This document shows positions 7,341-52,279 of a stretch of 64,000 bases of DNA, piece by piece (the stretch's first letter is position 1; every line of letters starts with the position of its first letter). The notes below the pieces were generated by a model. The model was not told the origin of the DNA, made no database searches, and saw only the letters and a program-made list of their open reading frames with translations. Both the position numbers and the translations under genes were made by a program. Source of the stretch: Candidatus Hermodarchaeota archaeon (GTDB taxonomy: Archaea > Asgardarchaeota > Hermodarchaeia > Hermodarchaeales > Hermodarchaeaceae). The stretch spans positions 32,001 to 96,000 of the forward strand of contig JAEOTB010000037.1 of NCBI GenBank assembly GCA_016840065.1. The letters are read 5' to 3'.

Positions 7341-8383
7341 ATGAGTGAACCTCCATCAACCCCAACTCCCCCTCCTCCAGCAGAACCTGCACCCCCTCCA
7401 GTAGAATCATCTGGAATGACAATAGCCGAAGTCCGTAGCCACGCTACACGAATACTCGACGAAGTAAACAAACTAGTAGTCGGGAAGCGCCACTTACTTC
7501 AGAATATACTGATTGGTCTGCTCAGCGGCGGGCACATCCTGCTAGAGGGCGTTTAAGGAACGCTCGGCAAAAAGGTGTTCCCGGTATTGCCAAGACGTAT
7601 GCAGCTAATACATTCGCGCAAGCTGTTGGTTGTTTGTTCAAACGAGTCCAATTCACTCCAGACCTCTTACCTGTTGACGTGACTGGGCATTCAATCTTTA
7701 ATCCTAGCTCCGGTGAGTTTTCTCTCCGAAAAGGTCCAGTCTTTACAAACGTTCTCTTAGCTGACGAGATTAACCGCTCCCCGCCAAAAACCCAATCGTC
7801 TCTACTTGAAGCTATGCAGGAAAAGCAAGTTACTATCGAGGGAACGACACTCCCCCTGCCCCACCCATTTATGGTTCTAGCGACACAAAATCCAATCGAA
7901 CTTGAGGGGACCTATCCTCTTCCCGAAGCGCAAGTTGACCGTTTTCTCTTCAAACTTCACGTCGATTATCCTTCTGAAACAGAGGAGGTAGAAATTCTTC
8001 GTCGGAGACATATCGGAGTAGGAAGTCGGGTAGACGCTGTAGTAAACCCGAACATCATTTTACGGATGCAGAGTACAATAAGAGAAGTGTTTGTCGAACC
8101 GCACATTTTGAACTACATAAGAGACATAGTCGTGCGGACTCGGAATGACCCTCAAATCCTCATCGGCGGCTCCCCACGTGCCTCAATTGTTCTCTTAGAA
8201 ACCTCGAAAGCCCACGCCGCGTTACAAGGCAGAGACTTTGTAACACCAGACGACATAAAGATGCTAGTACGCCATACCTTGAACCATCGCTTAATTCTGA
8301 AACCTGAAGCAGAACTTGAGGGCGCTTCGGTCCACTCTGTAATCGATCGCATACTCCGTCAGATTGGAGTACCGGGAGCATAG
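7341..8383 (+). CDS. moxR: MoxR-family AAA+ ATPase, spliced: exon1 7341-7545, exon2 7572-8383 (338 aa)
   Basis: Removing a 26-nt BHB intron joins ORFs 7341..7556 and 7634..8383, giving [14 protein letters not shown] (Walker A), [18 protein letters not shown] (Walker B), [22 protein letters not shown]. Confidence 0.92.
7546..7571 (+). other. 26-nt BHB intron in moxR mRNA
   Basis: Central helix UGCU/GGCA, bulges AG^A and AA^A, intron hairpin GGGCGUU-UAAGG-AACGCUC, exon stem GGGCACAUC/GGUGUUCCC; splicing gives CTA G|AA GGT GTT CCC = LEGVP. Confidence 0.9.
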
Positions 8384-20170: not shown

Positions 20171-20290
20171 GCCGGGATAGCCCAGTGGTACGGCGCGGGC
20201 CTTGAGTGGCGAAGGTAACAAGTTCCTCCTTTTCCCCTGCTAGCCCGTGACTTTATAGTCTCGGGGGTTCAAATCCCTCTCCCGGCGCCA
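20171..20290 (+). tRNA. tRNA-Ser(UGA) with 35-nt intron at canonical 37/38 position (20207-20241)
   Basis: Acceptor GCCGGGA/TCCCGGC, G73, encoded CCA; anticodon stem CGGGC/GCCCG with CT-TGA-G^A; long variable arm GACT-TTAT-AGTC; T loop TTCAAAT. Confidence 0.93.
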
Positions 20291-20846: not shown

Positions 20847-22295
20847 ATGAAGGAGAAACTGAAACAACTAGACGAGTTTCGCTACTGGCTCGACAAGACA
20901 GCCCGCCCCAAGATGAGAGTAGGCGCGATGTTATTTGCTTCACGCAAAGTTATACAACAAATAGAAGATAGCGCGGTTGAACAATTAACCAACGTCGCCT
21001 GTCTACCAGGTGTTATTGAGCCAGTTTTAGCCATGCCAGACGCACATTGGGGATATGGCTTACCAATGGGCGCAGTCGGGGCCTTTGACGCTGAGGAGGG
21101 CGTGATATCAGCTGGGATGACCGGTTTTGATATCAACTGCGGTGTCCGGTTAATTCGTACTAATCTAACTCAGGCTGAAGTTAAGCCCAAACTTCGTCAG
21201 CTCATGGAGGAATTGTTCAGGCGCGTGCCTGCTGGCGTCGGCTCTAGAGGTAAGATTCGCTTGAGCAATTCCGAGTTGGATGGTGTTTTACAGCTTGGTG
21301 CTCGATGGGCAGTCGAGAGTGGTCGCGGAGTTGACGCGGATTTAGAGCACTGTGAGGAAAGGGGCAATATGGAGGGTGCCGCAACCGGCTTGCCAGAGCT
21401 TTCAGAGCGGGTACGAACGCGTGGAAAACCTCAGCTGGGCACACTCGGTGCCGGTAATCACTACCTTGAAGCCCAAGTAGTTGATGAGGTGTTTAATGAA
21501 GAGGCAGCCTCCCGTTTTGGTTTAGAAAAGGGGAAAGTGGTTGTGATGTTACATTGTGGATCTCGCGGTTTCGGTCACCAAGTGGCAACTGATTACCTGA
21601 AGAGTATGGAGGTGGCTGCGCGGAAGTATAAAATTTGGTTGCCAGACAGACAACTCGTCTGCGCTCCAACCACATCGCCAGAGGGGCAAGCCTACTATTC
21701 CGCGATGAAGTCAGCCGTGAACTACGCCTTCTGCAACCGGCAAGTAATGACTCACTGGATTCGGGAAGGCTTTGAAACTGTCTTTGGGCGAGACTGGGAA
21801 AAACTAGGTCTTCACCTAGTTTATGATGTTTGCCATAATATATGCAAGCTAGAAACCCACGAGTTACACGGTGCAAAAAGGCAACTCTACATTCATCGAA
21901 AAGGTGCTACTCGTGCTTTTGGACCCGGCAACCCGCTTATCCCCCCTCACTACCAACCCGTTGGACAGCCAGTACTGATTGGTGGCTCTATGGGCACAGC
22001 CTCTTATGTACTAGTTGGTACAGAGCAGGCAATGAAAGAATCGTACGGTTCTACATGCCATGGTGCTGGACGCGCTATGGGTCGAAAAGCAGCCACAAGG
22101 AGATTTCATGGTAGGGAGATTCAACGTTCGCTTGAGCAATCAGGTAAAGTGATAAAATCTCATAGCGCCAAGCTACTCGCTGAAGAAGCGCCCAAGGCTT
22201 ACAAGGATGTCCACATGGTGATTGACGCAGTCCACGGAGCAGGAATTTCTCTGAAAGTCACGCGCCAGATTCCAATGGGCACTGTCAAAGGCTGA
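20847..22295 (+). CDS. rtcB: RNA-splicing ligase RtcB
   Basis: MPDAHWGYGLPMG, GFDINCGVR, LGTLGAGNHYLE, HCGSRGFGHQ, HRKGATRA, STCHGAGR, EEAPKAYKDV. Confidence 0.97.
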   Translation: MKEKLKQLDEFRYWLDKTARPKMRVGAMLFASRKVIQQIEDSAVEQLTNVACLPGVIEPVLAMPDAHWGYGLPMGAVGAFDAEEGVISAGMTGFDINCGVRLIRTNLTQAEVKPKLRQLMEELFRRVPAGVGSRGKIRLSNSELDGVLQLGARWAVESGRGVDADLEHCEERGNMEGAATGLPELSERVRTRGKPQLGTLGAGNHYLEAQVVDEVFNEEAASRFGLEKGKVVVMLHCGSRGFGHQVATDYLKSMEVAARKYKIWLPDRQLVCAPTTSPEGQAYYSAMKSAVNYAFCNRQVMTHWIREGFETVFGRDWEKLGLHLVYDVCHNICKLETHELHGAKRQLYIHRKGATRAFGPGNPLIPPHYQPVGQPVLIGGSMGTASYVLVGTEQAMKESYGSTCHGAGRAMGRKAATRRFHGREIQRSLEQSGKVIKSHSAKLLAEEAPKAYKDVHMVIDAVHGAGISLKVTRQIPMGTVKG

Positions 22296-41891: not shown

Positions 41892-42200
41892 CTATTTTAT
41901 TGAAATTTCTATGAAGACTTCTTCAGGAACACGGATTCGCATTATCTGACGCATGGTTCTTTCATCCGCTTCCAAGTCGATAAGGCGTTTGTGAATGCGC
42001 AGCTGCCAGCGATCCCAGGTTGGAGTTCCCTCCCCACAAGGTGATTTTCGGGTCTGCACCTTCATGATTTTAGTTGGTAAGGGAATAGGACCAGACATGT
42101 GAACCCCAGTACGGCTGACAATGGCCTTCACTTGCTTACAAACGTCATTTAGCTTGCTAATATCCACACTTGACAGCCGAATACGCGCCTTTTGTACCAT
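41892..42200 (-). CDS. rps10: 30S ribosomal protein S10
   Basis: [33 protein letters not shown]. Confidence 0.97.
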
Positions 42201-42258
42201 CTTTATCAACACTTAGCTAACATTTCGCGTGATGACTTGCCATCGATAAAAAGGCTTC

Positions 42259-42367: not shown

Positions 42368-43723
42368 CTACTTCTTTACTGTTATCTTCTGTACTACTCC
42401 AACAGCCACTGTGCGACCACTATCACGAATCGCAAACCGACCCAGCTGCTTCATATCGGCAAACCGCTCTAACACAATTGGCTGCACTGGACTGAACTTG
42501 ACGATAGCTGATTCACCTTGTTTGATGAAGTCTGGCTTCTCCTCCACCGTCTCGCCAGTACGAGGATCAATCTTGCTGATAAGCTCAGTGAAAGTCGTTG
42601 CCATCTGGAGTGTGTGAGCGTGCATAACTGGTGTGTACCCAGCGGCTATGGCTCGTGGGTGATGGATTACGATTATTTGTCCAACGAAATCTGTGATAAC
42701 CTTGGGTGGGTCGCTGACATGACCCATGACATCACCACGTTGAACCTCGCCTTTTCCAATGCCACGAACATTGAAACCGATGTTGTCGCCCGGCTCAGCC
42801 TTCTGCATTTTCTCATGGTGCATCTCGATTGACTTGACTTCGCCCGTATGCCCAGAGGGCATGAAGATTACTTTATCGCCAACTTTCAAAACACCAGTTT
42901 CAACTCTACCAACGGGAACAGAGCCTACGCCAGTAATGGTGTAGCAGTCCTGGATTGGTACTCGCAATGGTGCTTTGAGTGGTTTCTCTGGCTGTACGAA
43001 CTTGTCAAGAGCCTGGAGCAAGGTGGGACCTTTATACCAGGGCATGTTCTCACTAGCCTTATCCAGCCCATCTCCTGTCCAACCGCTGGTTGGGATGAAA
43101 TCGACTTTGCTTGGATCGAATTGAGCACCCTGGAGCACTGAAGTGACTTCTGCCTTGATTTCCTCGTAGCGTTCTTGGCTCCAAGGAGGCGTAGAGTCGT
43201 CCATCTTGTTCACAGCAACAGCGACCTGCTCGATACCAAGGGTTCGGGCAAGGAATGCGTGCTCACGGGTCTGCCCGCCCGCACTGATTCCAGCTTCAAA
43301 CTCACCCTTACGTGATGAAACGACAAGAATCGCCGCATCAGCCTGGCTGGCACCCGTAATCATGTGCAAGAATTAAGGAGCGTACCCCTCAATTATTCTT
43401 GATGAAGTCCGCGTGCCCAGGAGCGTCAATCAGCGTGAAGTAGTGTTTTTGTGTCTCGAATTTTCGAAAAGCTAGATCGATTGTTAGCCCACGTTCTCGC
43501 TCTTCCTTCAAGCGATCCATTACTTACCCCTTCATATCGTGTGATATGAAGTGTAGGCGAACTTGAACGAGGCGTCTTTCGTTTCTGATGCTAGCTTTTC
43601 TAATTTGAGCATTTCTTGTTTCGTTAGCGCACCCGTGACATATACGAGGTGGCCCATTAGCGTTGATTTACCATGATCAACGTGACCAATGATGATCAAG
43701 TTGATGTGTGGTTTAGTAGCCAT
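42368..43723 (-). CDS. tuf: Elongation factor 1-alpha, spliced from three exons: 43723-43553, 43523-43396, 43364-42368 (431 aa)
   Basis: Spliced product reads [15 protein letters not shown]|[37 protein letters not shown]|[13 protein letters not shown]; the middle exon is missing from the ORF track; 171+128+997 = 1296 nt. Confidence 0.95.
43365..43395 (-). other. 31-nt BHB intron 2 of tuf mRNA
   Basis: Exon stem UCAU/AUGA, central helix CAAG/CUUG, bulges AA^U and CA^C, intron hairpin AAUUGAGGGG-UACG-CUCCUUAAUU; splicing gives AAG AA|C ATG = K N M. Confidence 0.93.
43524..43552 (-). other. 29-nt BHB intron 1 of tuf mRNA
   Basis: Central helix GCCU/GGGU, bulges AC^A and AA^G, perfect 9-bp hairpin CUUCAUAUC-ACAC-GAUAUGAAG; splicing gives GCC TAC|GTA ATG GAT = A Y V M D. 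Confidence 0.92.
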
Positions 43724-43888: not shown

Positions 43889-46800
43889 TCAAAGTGGTAG
43901 GAGGGCTTGGAAGGGGGATAACATAGGTGCTACTGTGGCTACTAGCACGCCAAGTATTTGTCCAAGAAGATTACGGACGATTTGACCCACTACTTGATTG
44001 AGAAGAACCTTAACCACTCCAGCAAGAGTGAGATTACAAACCATCTTCCCCACAGGGAGTAGAACGCTATACCAGAGCCAAACCACACTATCACGAACAA
44101 TTGGTGATAACACACTAAGTATCCATGTAGCTATGAGATGAGCAAAATCTGCTAGCGTAAAGAAAGGAAAGCCCAACGCTTGCAGACTTGCCCCGAAGCC
44201 GGTGATAACTAAGCTTAGTAACCCCGTCGCCGATAAACTCGTAGCAGTAATACCCAAACTAAACACTGACCCGCTGATGTATTGGAGAACTATAGCGAAA
44301 ATACTGAATACAACGCCAATAAGCCAACCATATTGTGTAAGTGTAGCGAGGAAGGTGTTGATAGTGAATGTTAAGAATATGAAAAGCGCTGTACCGATTG
44401 CGCTGAGAATCAATGGGAGCAAGCTGCTGAATAAACTAGTAAGACCACTCCCAGTTGAAGCCGAAGAAGTGGAGGCTAAACCCCCACCAAGAGCCCGACT
44501 AGTTAAACTAACAACGGCAAAATTCTGTATCAAAACGAGAAGCGGCGCTAATGAAGTGTATCGAGCATCCATTGTATTAATGCCAAGACTTGTGAGGATA
44601 CTCTGAATGGCAGTAGTGATAGTGATTGCTACTAGAAGGGCCTTCCAGCGGCTGGGATTAAGTAACTGCCGAACACGCTGTTTGATTGTGAAAAACAGGT
44701 TCTTTGCATAATCCTTCAGCCTGTCTGTTAGCTGGTCGCGAGCGCGACCTGTAAGCATCTGTATGTAACTAGTTTCAAGAATAATTTGGGAAGGAAACTT
44801 TTGGCGCACAAACCGATCGAAAACATAGAATCTGCTGTAATATCCCCCTTTGTAGGTGTTTCCCCCACGAGAGCCGTATTGCCAGCTATTCCCTAATGTT
44901 CTATCTAGATTCTCGAAGATTGCGGGCCATCCACCAGGGTTTCCCCATCGACCTGTTTGATCTTTACCATTGTAGATGAAGGAAAGTTTTCCCCATTCCT
45001 TGTATGTAGACCATATTTTCTCATCAATGGATAGACTTCTCACGGTTTTTCCTCTATCAATTTCCTGATCAGATTGTAGAGGAACAGGGCAGATACGACC
45101 CACCCCAAGTACTGCACAGAAATAGATGAGGGTGTTCAAATCATCCCGAGTTACATCATCTAATCCATAACGCCATGTTCGATCACGAGCAGAATTCTTT
45201 CTTGCCGTCCAAAACGACCACGTTAATCTATAGAGTTTATTCTCTCCAAATCCACGAGTTGTACGACGGAGCCCGTAATACTGATTCAATAGTCCTACAT
45301 GTCGGTATTTGACATGAGTGGGCTCCAGTTGCATCGTCACCCCAACTGGTCCAGCAGGCGTGTTAACCAATTGAGTACCAGTTAAAGCCAGAGTTGTCAG
45401 GCCCATTAGCGGGTCAATATGCCCTTCACGACACTCGAATTCTACGAGCCGAAGCCCACCTAACTGTGGTTCGTCTGGTTTGGGTGGCATTTCATCATTC
45501 TGTTGAGGTTTCAGAATGAACAAGTTCCATTTAGTTTTCATTACCACATCAAGACGTTGTTTCATCGAAAGTAGTACGCCTTGAATGAATGGATTTAGTT
45601 CTTGAAGTGTCGGAGGGGCTGCGATGAATAATTGATTCTGATATTTCCTCTTTACCTCTTTGACGGCTTCGGTCTGGAAAAGAGGACCTTCGTCACAAAG
45701 AATACCTCTAGGAACCCCAGCAATGCAGCTGTAAAATTCAGCAAAGAGTAGGTATTGTCCTCTAATAGTTTTAGTCGAGAAGCCCTCAATATCTCCTGGA
45801 TAATGTGTGTGTATCTGGGCATTGTTTGGATTTAGTAAATCCCAAAGACACCAGAAACTCTTTCTCTTTGCTGAAACTCCAGTAAATCCAGTTCGAGTGG
45901 GAATAAGAAATGTGGGTAGTTCAATCCACCTATTACTCCATGTAGGCGCTTGGCTTGGTTTGTATCGAGCAGTAATCGTGGGATTAAGTGGAAGAATGAG
46001 AATAGCACCTTGCTGATTCTTGATATGGTTGATAAGGCTAGTATCTTGCTGGGCTAGTTCTGCAGTATCAATGTTTGAACGGTCTGGTTTGAGTATGAGA
46101 GCATTCTTGATATGGGCGACAACTGCATCTGAGTGGACTGGAAGACCATGATTCCTTCGGGCTTCTTGGAAATCAGCGTTGTCACTTATTCGATATATCA
46201 CTTGGAAAGTGGAGTAGGTTTTCCCTTTGTGATGTGTGTAGGTAATGAAGTTGTCCCGGACAATTCCAAGGTTTTCTTCTTCAAAATAAACACGTTTTGT
46301 ACCTTGCCCTGGAGGCGCTAACGCCATACGCTCTTCGTAAACCGCTGATGCTTGCTGCCAGTAAAGCCCCTTCGCATACCTTCCATCTCCTATGCCCGCC
46401 CAATGCCGAAAGATAAGAACTTCTGTTGTTAACTTAAGTGAGCCAATCACAGGAATAGGTGTGCTATTCAGAATCTCCTTTTCCAACCCCCTAACCTGCG
46501 AGTCAATCATCACACCCTCCTCAACAAGTGTAGCCATTGCTGGTAAAATTTCTTGGATTTGGGGAATAAGGATACCAATCTCCTTAACCGTAGTCCAGTC
46601 TAATCCCTTCATCTTGTCCAGTGTTTTCCTGATAGTTCCTTGAATTTGTTCTTTCATTATGCCTATACGGCCACACTTCAACGCTTGATCCAAGATATTG
46701 ACATACGGGAAAGTCTCTAGTGTTGTTGGGTAAATGGCTTCAGCACCATAGTCGGGAGTTGTGAAAGTACCTGAAGCTCCAGGTGGGGGAGGTGAGGTCT

Positions 46801-49800
46801 CATCCTCACCAAAAAGGAAAGCTTGCAGAAAAAACCCAATTACTGGCAACTCTAACAGCTTGCTTATCAGAAATTCAAGAGGTACGAATATGATGTTAGT
46901 TAGTGCATTTCGAACCGCTGTAATGATGCCGAATATTGCCTGTAATAGCACCATTCCTAATGTCATAAGTATCGTCTTCCCAATTTCTATTAAAACGCTC
47001 AAACACTGTGTAATGAAATCCCACGCAGGTCCTAGAATTGCCTTGGGGTCGAAAAAGCTCAATTGCCCGTCTGTCACCTTCTTGATAGCATACTGGGTAG
47101 CTAACTCGCCTACAACCTCTGGTAGACTCAAGGGTTTCCCTGAATGCCTGTTCAGAGCCTCCGCTACCCCCTTAATCACATACATAGGCTCTTCAATATA
47201 ACCAGCCTCAAAAAGCAGAATAGCCTGCACACTTCTGTCATATACGACTTGCCAGCCGAATCTGTCTTCTAACCCTGCATTCAGTTTCAACAGTCGCAGT
47301 AACCCGGTCAGCTTGTAAGATGCTTCTTCCAGATTTCGTATCTTAGCATAGTGAATTAGTTCATCAAAGAGACGCTGAGCCTCCAGCCCCACCTGATTCC
47401 ACGTCTCTGAACCCGCATCCTTGTACATCGACTCCGCAGTAGATAAGAGGGAATCGCGAGCTTCTTGGATGCGTTCCTGCAAAGCAACCTCGTCCCTCAG
47501 CCTCGCAAGCTTTGCCAAGGTTTCCGCTACTTTTACCTCCACTTGTTTCTGATGGATTACGGCCAGTATCGTGTTCTCTAGGTACTTGTCTAGAGACTCA
47601 TAGCCTAAATCCCATCCCCGCACCACCACCTCTCCATAAAAGAGGAAGGTGGGCACAAACCAGCCCATACTCAAAGACCCCTCAAAGACCTGAGTGGGAG
47701 CAAGATAGGGCTTGACACGGGACCAGTCCGCCTCCCCTACCTGATACTCTGGTGTGGTTGCAAAGGGACTCGCCTCGACTGATAGCAGCTGCGTTGACTG
47801 GAGGGCAGACTGCAAGAACTCGTCTTCCACCAGTGGATTTGAGTCAAAACACCATCGCTGGAGGTCACCCTCACCCAAATAGTACAGATCATCGCCTAAC
47901 TGTTGTTGAAGGGCTTGAAGCCGTAACATCTCTGCCAGCGATAGACGAGCCGCATCTACGGTGTGTTTTGTCGGGTCAACAGCGGTACGATAGCCCACTA
48001 AGAGGAAGCTACCTAATACTGTAGTGAGGGGTTCTACTTGGAAGGTTGATAGGTTCAAGGCTTGGAAGAATTGTAGGAGGTCTTGGGCATAGGCATCCAA
48101 GTTGGTTTGAGCGTGGTGGTGTAATTGCTCATGGAAGGTCAGAAAAGAAATATCTCCAGGGAGGCTAGCTCCAAGCCCTGCGAACATAAAAAGCAGAAGT
48201 TTGGGATCAACAAACGCAAGACCAGCTAGGCAGATAACAATCCAGGGTCCATTCATTAGGATGTAACTACCAATCAGTTGCTTATCGTCAAGAGAAGCAA
48301 AGACATTGAGAATTGTGGTCTTGGCCTCGGCTTCTCCTGCCTGTAGGAGTGAAGTTCCCACAAACTCAGCCCGTAGGGTCACCACACCCACAAGACTTTG
48401 GGACACCAGCCAATCTAGTGTAGCCTCTCCTTCGGCGTTGGTGTAGGCTTCGCCAAGAAGTGATGTGCCGTTTATCCCCTCAAGGAAGAAGCGGATAAGC
48501 TGATGTGCCACTGGCTGTCCAGTGCTAGTGGTTACGATTGCAGTTATTTGGGTTGTCTGTTGAGTTGTAAGATCCGCTGGAACCGACAATGTAAGTTGGG
48601 TTGTCGCCACCACACAGAACTCTATTATCTCACTGCTTGCACCAGCCGGACTCTTTGCGATGACAGTCGCCGTGTAGCTGTGCATCCCCTGTAAGGGACC
48701 GATGATACCCGATGTCATCCACACACTACCATAACAGGAGAGAGCAAAGCTTTCTGGTACACTGTTGCCATCGGTGTCAAGCTGGACGGTGAGTGTGAGG
48801 AGGTCGTCAGGGTATGTGGCGTTCAGAGTGACCTGTACACTCAAGGTGTCTGTATCACAAATTGTCGCATTACCATAGAGGGTAGATAGCTTTGCAGTCA
48901 AGATGGTGGGCGGATGGTTGCAGAGGGTGACACTCTGCTCTGCTTGGCAAGTTCGTAATGCCAAGTCATATCCAATGAGGGTGAGGATGTGGTCACCATC
49001 TGGTAACGTGCTAGTATCGAGGGTAAGGGTGTGGCTACCTGATGAGTGGAGGCGGAATAGCACTACCTCGCCATCTAATAGTAAGATTGCTTCTCTCATG
49101 TTCGCATCGGCGAGAAAGAGGGTGATTTCTACAATGCCTGTGAGGATGGTTCCTGCGGTGGGGGTGTCAATGCGAACCACTGGGTTCTCCAAGTCCACAG
49201 TGAAGGCTTCGGTGTATTCTGCGACATTACCCGCAATGTCAGTGGCTTTGATGAGAACTGTGTGTGGAGCCGCTGTAACTGCTATTGTAAAGGTGGTCTC
49301 GTTGGTGTTCTCTGCAACACCAGAGAATATGCCATCGATGAAGAGTTCGATTGTCTCGCAATGCCTGTCTGTTACAAAGACCACCACGTCAAGCGTGGTG
49401 TTTTCGGTGAACCCTGCCTCCGTTACTGGCAGAAAGACCTCCAAGATGGGTGCTGTGCTATCTATGAGAAAAGTGACACTCCGAGCAAGAGCATTTCCTG
49501 CGCGGTCCATTGCCTGAACCAGTATTGTGTGGGAACCATCAGTGAGATTGGTTAAGGTATATTGGCGGTAACTACCATCGAGTTCAACAGCTAGGGTTCC
49601 ATCGAGGTAAACAGTAAAGGTTGCAATCCCTGCGGTGGTGTCGCTGGCACTCCACTGAATACGCGGATTTACACTAGAAGTGTGAGAGTCTTCCAAGGGG
49701 GCTGTGATGGCTAGAGTCGGGGAAGTTGCGTCTGTGGTAAAGATGTTTGAGGTGCTTTGGTGATTGCCAGCCAAATCAATGGCTTCAACGGTCAAAGTGT

Positions 49801-52279
49801 GTATGCTCTCGGTCAAGTTGGAAAGCAGGAACATCGTGTCTACGGTGTTCGCCAATAAAACGCCGTCAAGGTAGACCTGATAATAGGCAATTCCCGTATT
49901 GTCAGTTCCCTCCCAAATAGCTGACAAACCAGTAGCGCTATAGTACTCACCCTCCAATGGTGATGCTATTACGACATCGGGTAATGTGTTATCTACAACC
50001 ACAATAAGGCTGTGAGTGGCTATCCAACCTACACCATCGGAGGCTATAGCAGCCAGGGTGTGGTTACCATCACACCACTCTTGAGTATCCCAAGGAAACA
50101 GAAAGGGAGGACAGGTCGTTGTGTTGTAGAGGAGAACACCATCAACGGACAGGACAACCCACAACACACCAGAGGGATTGATACCAAAATCATCTGCTGA
50201 TACCTCCACGACAACGGTTTGGCTGAGAATTGTTCCCTCAGAGAGAAAATCCACCGTTACAATGGGTGGTGTGGCGTCAACATGAAGCGTTCGTAACAAG
50301 CTAGCCCAGTTCCCCACCCTATCTACTGCTGTGGTATTCACGGTGTATGTTCCTTCTATTGTGGGTACTGTCCATTCTTGGGTTTGTGAGCCTGTATCAG
50401 TTGTTGAGATCCTGTGATGGTAGTTATTGGGACCTGTGATGGTCAGGTTGGAAGCCGCCAACCCTGCTGGGGGATTGCCCTCATCGGTCTGCTGCCACAC
50501 AAGACTACACAGTTTTCCCGCAGCAACATGAGCAGCATTGGCTGGGGCAGAGAAGGAAAGGAGGGGTGTCGTGCAATCAATCAGATAGATACCGTGAATT
50601 GTTGTTGCACCCACTTCACCAGTTTGGGGGTTTACCGCAAATGCCATCACATCGTACCAGCCCTCCAATACACCAGCAACAACCTCTGTCAAGTAGCCAT
50701 CACCACTCCCATTTACAGGAAGATAGAGATTACCACTTGGTTGTTCATAGACTTGGGTGCCATCACAGATAATTCGATATTTTGCAAAGGTGGGACCTGC
50801 TGCATAGGAGACAGTCACATTGAACTGATCGCCCACAGCCGCATAGGTTTGAGTCGAATCTGCTGTGACACTCCACCCCCCATGTGTTGCCAACCTGTTA
50901 ACCGAGTTTGCGGAAAAAGTCCAAACACCTTCTGCAGGATTATTCACGAATATACTATACGACGCTTCACTGAGCGAAACAGAGCCTGATGGGTTGTTGG
51001 GGCTAGATTGGTAATTACTCCAGCCACAGGGGAGGCTGAGCGAGAAGCTCCCCGGTTGCCACTGGGCACCCGTAACTTGACTACTAAAGGAAATGCCCCA
51101 ATCAGCAAATGAAGCACCACTGATAACGGAAAAGGTGGTGTCGGCGGTACGCTCCCAGCTAGCCTCCATTGATTCGTGGTGATTGAACACCGTCACAGGC
51201 CAATCCGAGGCACCGCTGTCTGAGCGAGTGAAATAATATGAAGTACCAGTACCACTGGCGCAAGTATCTAAAACACTCACATGACCCTTTCCCCAGTCCA
51301 CTCCATTTGACACCGCATACTGCTTGGTGGGATCCGCTTCACTTCTAAGAGCTAGGTCCAGGTCACTGGATCGAAGCTTGTGGAGAGCCCACAGGTTAGC
51401 ATAGTCAAACCGCACCGCACTCCAATGACTACTGAACAGGGTTGAAGCAGTGGTCACCCAGACATTTAGACGAAGCTCAATGGTTGCCGCATGATCCGGT
51501 AGGGCGCTGTCAAAATGCAGGTTAACCTCATCGGTTACCCAGGTGTCCAGCGGCGAAGCCAAATCCATATCATAGGGGGTGGCTGCTAGTACGCTATCGA
51601 CGTAGATTTGGGCGCATATTCGCACCCAGTTTTTGTAGCGAAAGCCAAGGGTTAGTTGGGTGCGGTGGAGGGGGAAGAGTCCGCGTGTGTCGCTGAACCA
51701 GCCCGGCGGCACCAAGAAGCTTTGGCTGAAGTAGCCCTGACAGGTACCCTGGTAGATAATCCAGCCGATGAGGAGGGGTGATTCGATTTCTCCGTAGGAT
51801 ATTCCTTCTTCACTGGCAAAGGAGATTTGGGCGATTCCATCGGTGTGGTTGGTCCAAGGAGTGCCGTGGTCGAAGTGGTAGTCGCTGAGCCATTCGCTGC
51901 GCTGCCCCCATAAATCGCCCACATAGGAGGTGAAGAAATAGTCGAAGTAGGTTCCCTCCGTGGGCGGATCCACTTGGGGACCTATCACTTCCAGCGACGA
52001 GGCTTCGGTCATGTAGCGGTTTGTGGTGGGTGTTGTACAACCTGCTGTAATAGTGCCAGAAAGGGGTGCAGAAGACCCTGAGAAAATATCCACTCCACTT
52101 GTTGGAGGTATCAGTTGTTGTGGGTTTGGATTGGCGATTGGTAGAGTTTGCTGATGGTGAGAAGCTGACTCCCTTAGAGGAGGAGAGTCTGTAGTGAGGT
52201 GGGGGGATTGGGGGAAGGCGCTGATGCTGCCTAGAAAGAGAAGGAGGAGCACGCAGGCGATGGAACCATTCACCTTCAT
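43889..52279 (-). CDS. Giant (2796 aa) secreted/membrane protein with Ig-like repeats, unknown central domain and multi-TM C-terminus
   Basis: Signal peptide; repeated D-x-T-x-P...G.HTL...A.D.AGN Ig-like units; hydrophobic segments near 48200, 46900 and 44640-43900. Confidence 0.8.
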   Translation of the reverse strand: MKVNGSIACVLLLLFLGSISAFPQSPHLTTDSPPLRESASHHQQTLPIANPNPQQLIPPTSGVDIFSGSSAPLSGTITAGCTTPTTNRYMTEASSLEVIGPQVDPPTEGTYFDYFFTSYVGDLWGQRSEWLSDYHFDHGTPWTNHTDGIAQISFASEEGISYGEIESPLLIGWIIYQGTCQGYFSQSFLVPPGWFSDTRGLFPLHRTQLTLGFRYKNWVRICAQIYVDSVLAATPYDMDLASPLDTWVTDEVNLHFDSALPDHAATIELRLNVWVTTASTLFSSHWSAVRFDYANLWALHKLRSSDLDLALRSEADPTKQYAVSNGVDWGKGHVSVLDTCASGTGTSYYFTRSDSGASDWPVTVFNHHESMEASWERTADTTFSVISGASFADWGISFSSQVTGAQWQPGSFSLSLPCGWSNYQSSPNNPSGSVSLSEASYSIFVNNPAEGVWTFSANSVNRLATHGGWSVTADSTQTYAAVGDQFNVTVSYAAGPTFAKYRIICDGTQVYEQPSGNLYLPVNGSGDGYLTEVVAGVLEGWYDVMAFAVNPQTGEVGATTIHGIYLIDCTTPLLSFSAPANAAHVAAGKLCSLVWQQTDEGNPPAGLAASNLTITGPNNYHHRISTTDTGSQTQEWTVPTIEGTYTVNTTAVDRVGNWASLLRTLHVDATPPIVTVDFLSEGTILSQTVVVEVSADDFGINPSGVLWVVLSVDGVLLYNTTTCPPFLFPWDTQEWCDGNHTLAAIASDGVGWIATHSLIVVVDNTLPDVVIASPLEGEYYSATGLSAIWEGTDNTGIAYYQVYLDGVLLANTVDTMFLLSNLTESIHTLTVEAIDLAGNHQSTSNIFTTDATSPTLAITAPLEDSHTSSVNPRIQWSASDTTAGIATFTVYLDGTLAVELDGSYRQYTLTNLTDGSHTILVQAMDRAGNALARSVTFLIDSTAPILEVFLPVTEAGFTENTTLDVVVFVTDRHCETIELFIDGIFSGVAENTNETTFTIAVTAAPHTVLIKATDIAGNVAEYTEAFTVDLENPVVRIDTPTAGTILTGIVEITLFLADANMREAILLLDGEVVLFRLHSSGSHTLTLDTSTLPDGDHILTLIGYDLALRTCQAEQSVTLCNHPPTILTAKLSTLYGNATICDTDTLSVQVTLNATYPDDLLTLTVQLDTDGNSVPESFALSCYGSVWMTSGIIGPLQGMHSYTATVIAKSPAGASSEIIEFCVVATTQLTLSVPADLTTQQTTQITAIVTTSTGQPVAHQLIRFFLEGINGTSLLGEAYTNAEGEATLDWLVSQSLVGVVTLRAEFVGTSLLQAGEAEAKTTILNVFASLDDKQLIGSYILMNGPWIVICLAGLAFVDPKLLLFMFAGLGASLPGDISFLTFHEQLHHHAQTNLDAYAQDLLQFFQALNLSTFQVEPLTTVLGSFLLVGYRTAVDPTKHTVDAARLSLAEMLRLQALQQQLGDDLYYLGEGDLQRWCFDSNPLVEDEFLQSALQSTQLLSVEASPFATTPEYQVGEADWSRVKPYLAPTQVFEGSLSMGWFVPTFLFYGEVVVRGWDLGYESLDKYLENTILAVIHQKQVEVKVAETLAKLARLRDEVALQERIQEARDSLLSTAESMYKDAGSETWNQVGLEAQRLFDELIHYAKIRNLEEASYKLTGLLRLLKLNAGLEDRFGWQVVYDRSVQAILLFEAGYIEEPMYVIKGVAEALNRHSGKPLSLPEVVGELATQYAIKKVTDGQLSFFDPKAILGPAWDFITQCLSVLIEIGKTILMTLGMVLLQAIFGIITAVRNALTNIIFVPLEFLISKLLELPVIGFFLQAFLFGEDETSPPPPGASGTFTTPDYGAEAIYPTTLETFPYVNILDQALKCGRIGIMKEQIQGTIRKTLDKMKGLDWTTVKEIGILIPQIQEILPAMATLVEEGVMIDSQVRGLEKEILNSTPIPVIGSLKLTTEVLIFRHWAGIGDGRYAKGLYWQQASAVYEERMALAPPGQGTKRVYFEEENLGIVRDNFITYTHHKGKTYSTFQVIYRISDNADFQEARRNHGLPVHSDAVVAHIKNALILKPDRSNIDTAELAQQDTSLINHIKNQQGAILILPLNPTITARYKPSQAPTWSNRWIELPTFLIPTRTGFTGVSAKRKSFWCLWDLLNPNNAQIHTHYPGDIEGFSTKTIRGQYLLFAEFYSCIAGVPRGILCDEGPLFQTEAVKEVKRKYQNQLFIAAPPTLQELNPFIQGVLLSMKQRLDVVMKTKWNLFILKPQQNDEMPPKPDEPQLGGLRLVEFECREGHIDPLMGLTTLALTGTQLVNTPAGPVGVTMQLEPTHVKYRHVGLLNQYYGLRRTTRGFGENKLYRLTWSFWTARKNSARDRTWRYGLDDVTRDDLNTLIYFCAVLGVGRICPVPLQSDQEIDRGKTVRSLSIDEKIWSTYKEWGKLSFIYNGKDQTGRWGNPGGWPAIFENLDRTLGNSWQYGSRGGNTYKGGYYSRFYVFDRFVRQKFPSQIILETSYIQMLTGRARDQLTDRLKDYAKNLFFTIKQRVRQLLNPSRWKALLVAITITTAIQSILTSLGINTMDARYTSLAPLLVLIQNFAVVSLTSRALGGGLASTSSASTGSGLTSLFSSLLPLILSAIGTALFIFLTFTINTFLATLTQYGWLIGVVFSIFAIVLQYISGSVFSLGITATSLSATGLLSLVITGFGASLQALGFPFFTLADFAHLIATWILSVLSPIVRDSVVWLWYSVLLPVGKMVCNLTLAGVVKVLLNQVVGQIVRNLLGQILGVLVATVAPMLSPFQALLPL

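Follow-up and report, generated by a model that had tools for sequence, protein, structure and literature searches.

A putative tRNA-type intron in the EF-1alpha gene of a Hermodarchaeota archaeon, probably copied from dnaG

The window analysed here, a stretch of 64,000 nucleotides from one contig of a Candidatus Hermodarchaeota archaeon of the Asgard group (genome G000), contains the essential gene for EF-1alpha, tuf, whose reading frame is broken twice. A sequence-only reading had interpreted the first break as a short intron with a relaxed BHB motif, perhaps weak enough for its splicing to limit the output of the protein. The questions raised by this locus are what the insert is, where it came from, and whether there is reason to believe that it controls the gene that it interrupts. 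The features needed to follow the argument are listed below in window coordinates, from the start of the gene on.

43553..43723, minus strand: tuf exon 1, 57 codons, whose last six bases are GCCTAC
43555..43558, minus strand: exon strand of the central helix, GCCU, whose partner is the intron GGGU at 43529-43526
43554-43552, minus strand: 5' bulge, AC^A
43524..43552, minus strand: tuf intron 1 (29 nt; BHB of HBh' type), homologous to the dnaG intron family, with an in-frame TGA at 43534-43532
43530..43551, minus strand: intron hairpin h', nine Watson-Crick pairs and a 4-nt loop, whose 5' arm is the dnaG intron consensus
43525-43523, minus strand: 3' bulge, AA^G
43396..43523, minus strand: tuf exon 2, 128 nt
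43365..43395, minus strand: tuf intron 2, 31 nt, canonical hBHBh', with no sequence kinship to intron 1
42368..43364, minus strand: tuf exon 3
41892..42212, minus strand: rps10 (uS10), downstream of tuf

The minus strand from 43552 to 43524 reads exactly as the sequence-only reading had spelled it out, and its account of the coding consequences holds as well. The open reading frames that make up the gene, of 63, 43 and 333 amino acids, all fall on consecutive stretches of the NCBIfam EF-1alpha models, and excising both introns in silico yields a protein of 431 amino acids that aligns to the products of the intact tuf genes of two congeners with 91-92% identity and zero gaps. Among five placements of the cuts, only 43524-43552 produces the predicted junction FAY|VMD. 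Retention of intron 1 stops translation after 63 amino acids, namely 57 native residues followed by TSYHTI and the TGA. The two introns total 60 nt, and both need to be removed. The gene is the only one for EF-1alpha in the genome, the remaining matches being GTPases at 24-25% identity. Because exon 2 differs from its counterparts in the two congeners by 19-22 synonymous codons and by no replacement, tuf is very probably alive, and hence must be spliced.

The ends of the insert can be determined without using any motif: compared with the empty allele of the congener G001, the insert allows no sliding, and its ends are thus fixed. They coincide exactly with the cut sites of a BHB motif, each lying behind the second base of a 3-nt bulge. 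The central helix GCCU/GGGU consists of two Watson-Crick and two G-U pairs, in the order G-U, C-G, C-G, U-G, so that the two announced G-U pairs are indeed there, and it is 100% paired in 15 homologues. The intron hairpin, described earlier as perfect, forms all its nine Watson-Crick pairs and shows compensatory changes in homologues; the 29-mer has a z-score of -7.4, and none of 200 shuffled sequences is as good. The exon stem begins, as had been claimed, with a C/U mismatch, followed by two A-U pairs and one G-U pair. Since no exon-exon helix h is stacked directly on the 3' bulge, the motif does not belong to the hBHBh' class, and what had been called a relaxed BHB is, more precisely, of the HBh' class. 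The insert is probably a tRNA-type (HBh') pre-mRNA intron. It is known from one assembly: exact-protein look-ups with the 63-aa and exon-3 products gave no match, and no independent contig emerged from them.

Such an intron requires enzymes, and the genome contains genes for two EndA paralogues, predicted to form a two-subunit enzyme of broad specificity, and for RtcB. One of the paralogues retains Tyr, His and Lys of the catalytic site; it is closest to the tRNA-splicing endonuclease chains PDB 3p1z and 3ajv (E 6e-45), which we take to be the catalytic subunit of the two-subunit enzyme of Aeropyrum. RtcB, the RNA ligase that would join the exons, has its gene in the window itself.

20982..22292, plus strand: rtcB (matched stretch)

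Just upstream of rtcB lies a tRNA-Ser with an intron, at G000:C10:52171-52290 (window positions around 20171-20290), and introns are present in many tRNAs of this genome. According to published reports, two-subunit EndA enzymes tolerate relaxed motifs (PMC2738675; PMC12397907). Splicing of tuf intron 1 is very probably carried out by EndA and RtcB.

The origin of the insert can be approached through a second gene of the same contig. About 32 kb from tuf intron 1, and some 11.7 kb past the end of the window, the FGQTEGL|LGE motif of DnaG is interrupted by another BHB intron.

G000:C10:107682-107712 (L067:1505-1535), plus strand: dnaG intron, 31 nt

In the genome scan, this insert has the same ends as tuf intron 1, and the helix strands GCCU and GGGU occur in it together with those ends. 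The two introns have in common the six exon bases GCCTAC, seven bases at the 5' end and twelve at the 3' end; unrelated pairs of introns of the genome have 0 to 3 bases in common at each end. Intron 1 carries the whole dnaG-family pattern, with exon GCCTAC, 5' ACTTC, a stem of 8-9 bp, and 3' GAAGGGG(T/C)A(A/T). Compared with the dnaG introns of the family, it is identical at 20 to 27 of its 29 bases. For eight other introns of the genome, the number of matches never exceeds 19. When 20,000 random hairpins were given identical fixed ends, none attained the observed score of 26, the highest value being 24. In the alignment of the introns, 96.9% of the cells are paired, two stem pairs are changed on both sides, the U-G pair of the central helix occurs in every one of the 15 aligned copies, and the pair at the opposite end varies, 11 copies having G-U and 4 having G-C, all these counts being descriptive, as the sequences are related and not independent. 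These comparisons establish, at the level of sequence, that tuf intron 1 is homologous to the dnaG intron of Hermodarchaeia. The best match is with the dnaG introns of the sister genus, at 27/29 and including the ACA loop, and the genome's own dnaG intron scores slightly lower, at 26/31. Since tuf intron 1 is closer to the introns of the sister genus, its direct donor may have been a foreign or an ancestral one. Its 9+4+9 geometry is that of the dnaG introns of the congeners.

Which of the two genes received the intron from the other? The dnaG intron is present at the FGQTEGL|LGE site in all 18 family genomes that have dnaG, and in 10 metagenome contigs. The site of tuf intron 1 is empty in 15 of the 15 relatives that cover it, five family tuf genes stopping at contig edges. 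At the empty site, the target reads GCCTAC in congeners, and GCTTAC or GCTTAT in the other genus. Within the family, the tuf gene of G000 holds the sole copy found beyond dnaG, and no further copy of the intron family was found in 61 genomes, the GTDB contigs and the JGI metagenomes; the strict tuf-intron pattern has no match in the latter. With relatives whose tuf site is empty, the direction is very likely from dnaG to tuf. The relaxed dnaG-family pattern produced four extra matches, which were rejected for having no BHB geometry or for failing to restore the frame. As for tuf intron 2, no sister was found in 31 genomes, where matches are at chance level.

We propose that tuf intron 1 stems from a recent, near-neutral transposition of the dnaG intron into tuf, and that it is spliced by a two-subunit EndA and RtcB; we would assign a probability of about 75% to this reading. 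A complete dnaG intron would have been copied into tuf in the lineage of this species, directly behind a pre-existing GCCTAC, the six bases that also precede the dnaG intron. The incoming GGGU would have paired at once with the exon GCCU, thus forming the central helix, so that splicing would have been possible as soon as the insertion had occurred. Both G-U pairs would have arrived with the donor, the intron being a near-neutral passenger. EndA, we infer, would cut each bulge behind its second base, and the exons would then be joined by RtcB. Regarding the route, our preferred guess is that an excised dnaG intron was ligated into a cut tuf mRNA, and that the product was then copied back into DNA. 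The insert is an exact excised intron, and its 3' junction has no homology, which fits the ligation of a free intron guided by the pairing of GGGU with GCCU. The RNA route is weakened by the failure to find an RVT_1 reverse transcriptase in G000, an assembly that is 84% complete, and by the rarity of this enzyme in the family, where it occurs in one of 19 genomes.

The same donor and the same direction are kept, and the route alone differs, if the copy was made on DNA, the GCCTAC microhomology having served for a template switch or a gene conversion with dnaG as the source, and the product being kept since it happened to be spliceable. The 6-nt identity at the 5' junction, the location of donor and recipient on one contig, and the want of a reverse transcriptase all speak for a DNA copy, and a DNA-level route has been supposed for the tRNA introns of Thermoproteales (PMC4090602). 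However, homology does not continue past the 3' junction, where dnaG has TCGG and tuf GTAA, and a template switch that returned at the available GTAAT microhomology would give an insert of 25 nt instead of 29, even if selection could remove the 25-nt product; we hold this route to be rather unlikely. The resemblance of the two introns might also come from a third donor of both, be it a tRNA intron, a mobile element, or a foreign dnaG acquired horizontally. The best match in the sister genus, loop included, can be read in this way, and assemblies that are 72-91% complete, often with tRNAs missing, could hide such a donor. But the searches described above brought up no further copy, and the 9+4+9 geometry fits an ancestral donor of the lineage itself; a third donor seems improbable.

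More radical readings deny that there is a spliced intron at all. The insert comes from a single assembly and is known at the DNA level, and one could therefore imagine that tuf is dead, that the assembly is chimeric, or that ribosomes bypass the insert. However, the gene is the sole EF-1alpha of the genome and is under strong purifying selection; the insert is identical to no known dnaG intron, and the flanking bases in common, 6 on one side and 0 on the other, are too few for a k-mer chimera; and bypassing requires matching take-off and landing codons, which here are TAC and TAA. We give these readings hardly any credence, and return to the copying of the dnaG intron into tuf.

If the intron came with its motif ready-made, what becomes of the suggestion that the motif sets the pace of EF-1alpha synthesis? 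The part of it that concerns the motif stands, the G-U pairs and the relaxed structure being real; the tuned, rate-limiting splice lacks support, for the G-U pairs are also found in the dnaG family. Selected tuning of EF-1alpha fares no better, since an intron without counterpart in the tuf genes of 15 out of 15 relatives is no conserved control element; neither a conserved position nor a conserved suboptimal motif in a regulated gene is found here. The sequence-only reading had also supposed a weaker substrate. At 37 C, the predicted cost of forming the whole motif is 0.9-1.5 kcal/mol in intron 1, against 1.7 in intron 2 and 1.8-4.7 in the dnaG introns, with only small changes at 25 or 50 C, these being ViennaRNA energies that leave out the binding of EndA, so that gaps of 1-2 kcal/mol are weak evidence both ways; the cost of intron 1 is not above that of intron 2, whose fold loses a bulge to an extended helix. 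Most of the other mRNA introns that we found also have G-U pairs or mismatches in their central helices. The motif thus appears species-specific, inherited and unexceptional, and selected tuning is not supported.

Some observations can nevertheless be marshalled for a selected rate-limiting splice that would make EF-1alpha output follow EndA activity or temperature. Taken alone, the central helix has a predicted pairing of 0.11 in intron 1 versus 0.98 in intron 2, because a slipped register competes; the cbf5 intron has been put forward, as a proposal, as a negative regulator (PMC2738675); and several tuf sites have gained introns in other Asgard families. However, repeated gains at different sites are also to be expected if introns insert neutrally into a conserved gene with high transcription. 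Added to the inheritance of the G-U pairs from dnaG, to the confinement of intron 1 to one species, and to a folding cost that stays nearly flat from 25 to 50 C, this leaves the idea very improbable. Unequal splicing rates are possible as a side effect.

The tuf gene is not the only protein gene of this genome to be interrupted. A motif-free comparison of G000 with 2.17 Mb of G004, another member of the family, contributes to a count of at least seven mRNA introns in G000, a lower bound, since in-frame and near-terminal introns can escape. The raw genome-wide BHB scan, with 28,345 candidates, is dominated by chance and was applied only together with homology. Frame-breaking, BHB-shaped inserts of G000 with respect to G004 were found in moxR, in two acs paralogues, and in a kbl/bioF-type gene, and other inserts are specific to G004.

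7546..7571, plus strand, in the window: BHB-type insert of 26 nt in a gene for a MoxR-like AAA ATPase, absent from G004 and of another sequence family
G000:C113:13591, C105:284 and C104:14868, minus strand: inserts of 31 nt in two acetyl-CoA synthetase paralogues, where they share one site, and of 34 nt in the kbl/bioF-type gene
L034:12651 (plus strand), L142:15791 (plus strand) and L047:11145 (minus strand): G004-specific inserts in cbf5 and two other genes

The 34-nt insert of the kbl/bioF-type gene has a mismatch in its central helix. The only intron that G000 and G004 have in common is that of dnaG; the other "shared candidates" of the comparison turned out to be antisense-frame noise and were discarded. 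The cbf5 insert of G004 is in the N-terminal NLDKP motif, which is not the crenarchaeal site, and its exon end, TGGAT, and its intron end, CCAGAA, recur in the insert of L142. Outside the family, dnaG has a second site, 12 nt upstream, with BHB-like inserts of 31-40 nt in families f7, f3 and f9 (L178, L185, L196, L198); the dnaG match is split in about half of the genomes of family f9, two of which were read. In three other Asgard families, tuf itself has BHB-like inserts of 30-43 nt, near residues 18-19, 54, 95 and 98-99 (L245, L247-L249, L252-L255, L257, L258). One of these sequences, L258, has two tuf inserts with a common GATTTCC loop, perhaps the result of another copying event.

Introns cut by EndA have been described in archaeal mRNAs, and reviews name two substrates, cbf5 and the 5' UTR of HVO_1309 (PMC10485636; PMC7714728). 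The cbf5 intron of Desulfurococcales and Sulfolobales (Watanabe 2002; Yokobori 2009, PMC2738675) resembles tuf intron 1 in that it is short, interrupts the coding part of an archaeal gene, has a relaxed BHB at its borders, and occurs in a host whose EndA is hetero-oligomeric. It belongs, however, to another gene and another phylum, and represents one ancient gain, confirmed by cDNA. It also sits at the codon of the catalytic Asp of cbf5, a gene that is uninterrupted in G000. In contrast with this single gain, most of the mRNA introns of G000, at least seven in number, have no counterpart in a relative from the family, and one is copied, as we propose, from another gene. The intron of Haloferax volcanii HVO_1309 (PMC7714728; PMC10485636) is likewise a BHB intron cleaved by EndA in an mRNA, but it lies in a 5' UTR, so that it breaks no reading frame, and the EndA is homodimeric.

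Movement of such introns has been described for tRNA genes. Thermoproteales have near-identical tRNA introns at different loci within one genome, with targets set by the need to form a BHB (Fujishima 2010, reviewed in PMC4090602), and this transposition concerns tRNA genes only (PMC4090602); in G000, the two genes are unrelated and code for proteins, the six exon bases match exactly, and the direction follows from relatives with an empty site. A 2026 preprint on Asgard tRNA introns reports repeated recent gains at BHB-compatible sites, allows G-U pairs in the central helix, and scores HBh' motifs as canonical (Goswami et al., 10.64898/2026.10.13.758758). It is restricted to tRNA genes, and its text does not contain "mRNA", "cbf5" or "Hermod". 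In that census, cross-locus copying is rare, at 1.5% versus 0.6% in shuffled data, and the route of arrival is left open (10.64898/2026.10.13.758758); this rarity counts against a transposition from dnaG to tuf. The literature within our scope, from which most subscription papers fall out, has no report of mRNA introns in Asgard archaea or of copying from one protein gene to another, and in its searchable part, the archaeal mRNAs with confirmed EndA-type splicing come down to cbf5, as the one coding sequence, and a single 5' UTR.

Tiny mRNA introns thus appear able to move between protein genes. A donor in dnaG, a recipient in tuf, an exact exon target, and relatives with empty sites make the mechanism of arrival testable with two enzymes and short RNAs. 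A broader conjecture, which we offer tentatively and would not back at even odds, is that protein-free BHB mini-introns of Asgard archaea are mobile between mRNAs, being ligated by EndA and RtcB into a cognate 6-nt target, with fixation in DNA following. If it is true, the closest relatives of eukaryotes gain introns in their protein genes by a sequence-targeted process that host enzymes drive, and tuf intron 1 is a case in which donor, target and empty alleles are all known. On a more practical level, core genes of Asgard archaea such as tuf, dnaG, acs and cbf5 can be mis-annotated as truncated genes or pseudogenes.

A few minor observations concern the surroundings of the intron. If intron 1 is retained, a GGGGU stands five bases 5' of the ATG of Met59 (43530-43518, minus strand), a possible candidate for the ribosome-binding site of an N-truncated product; the 3' end of the 16S was not found in the G000 assembly. 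Immediately upstream of tuf, 43889-52279 on the minus strand is an open reading frame of 2796 amino acids, with repeats and a start that resembles a signal peptide. Downstream, the exact-protein look-up with rps10 returned one contig of 1.35 kb, which stops short of the tuf introns. This Logan contig from a public run, L275, encodes an identical rps10 protein, and its source run may hold a close population.
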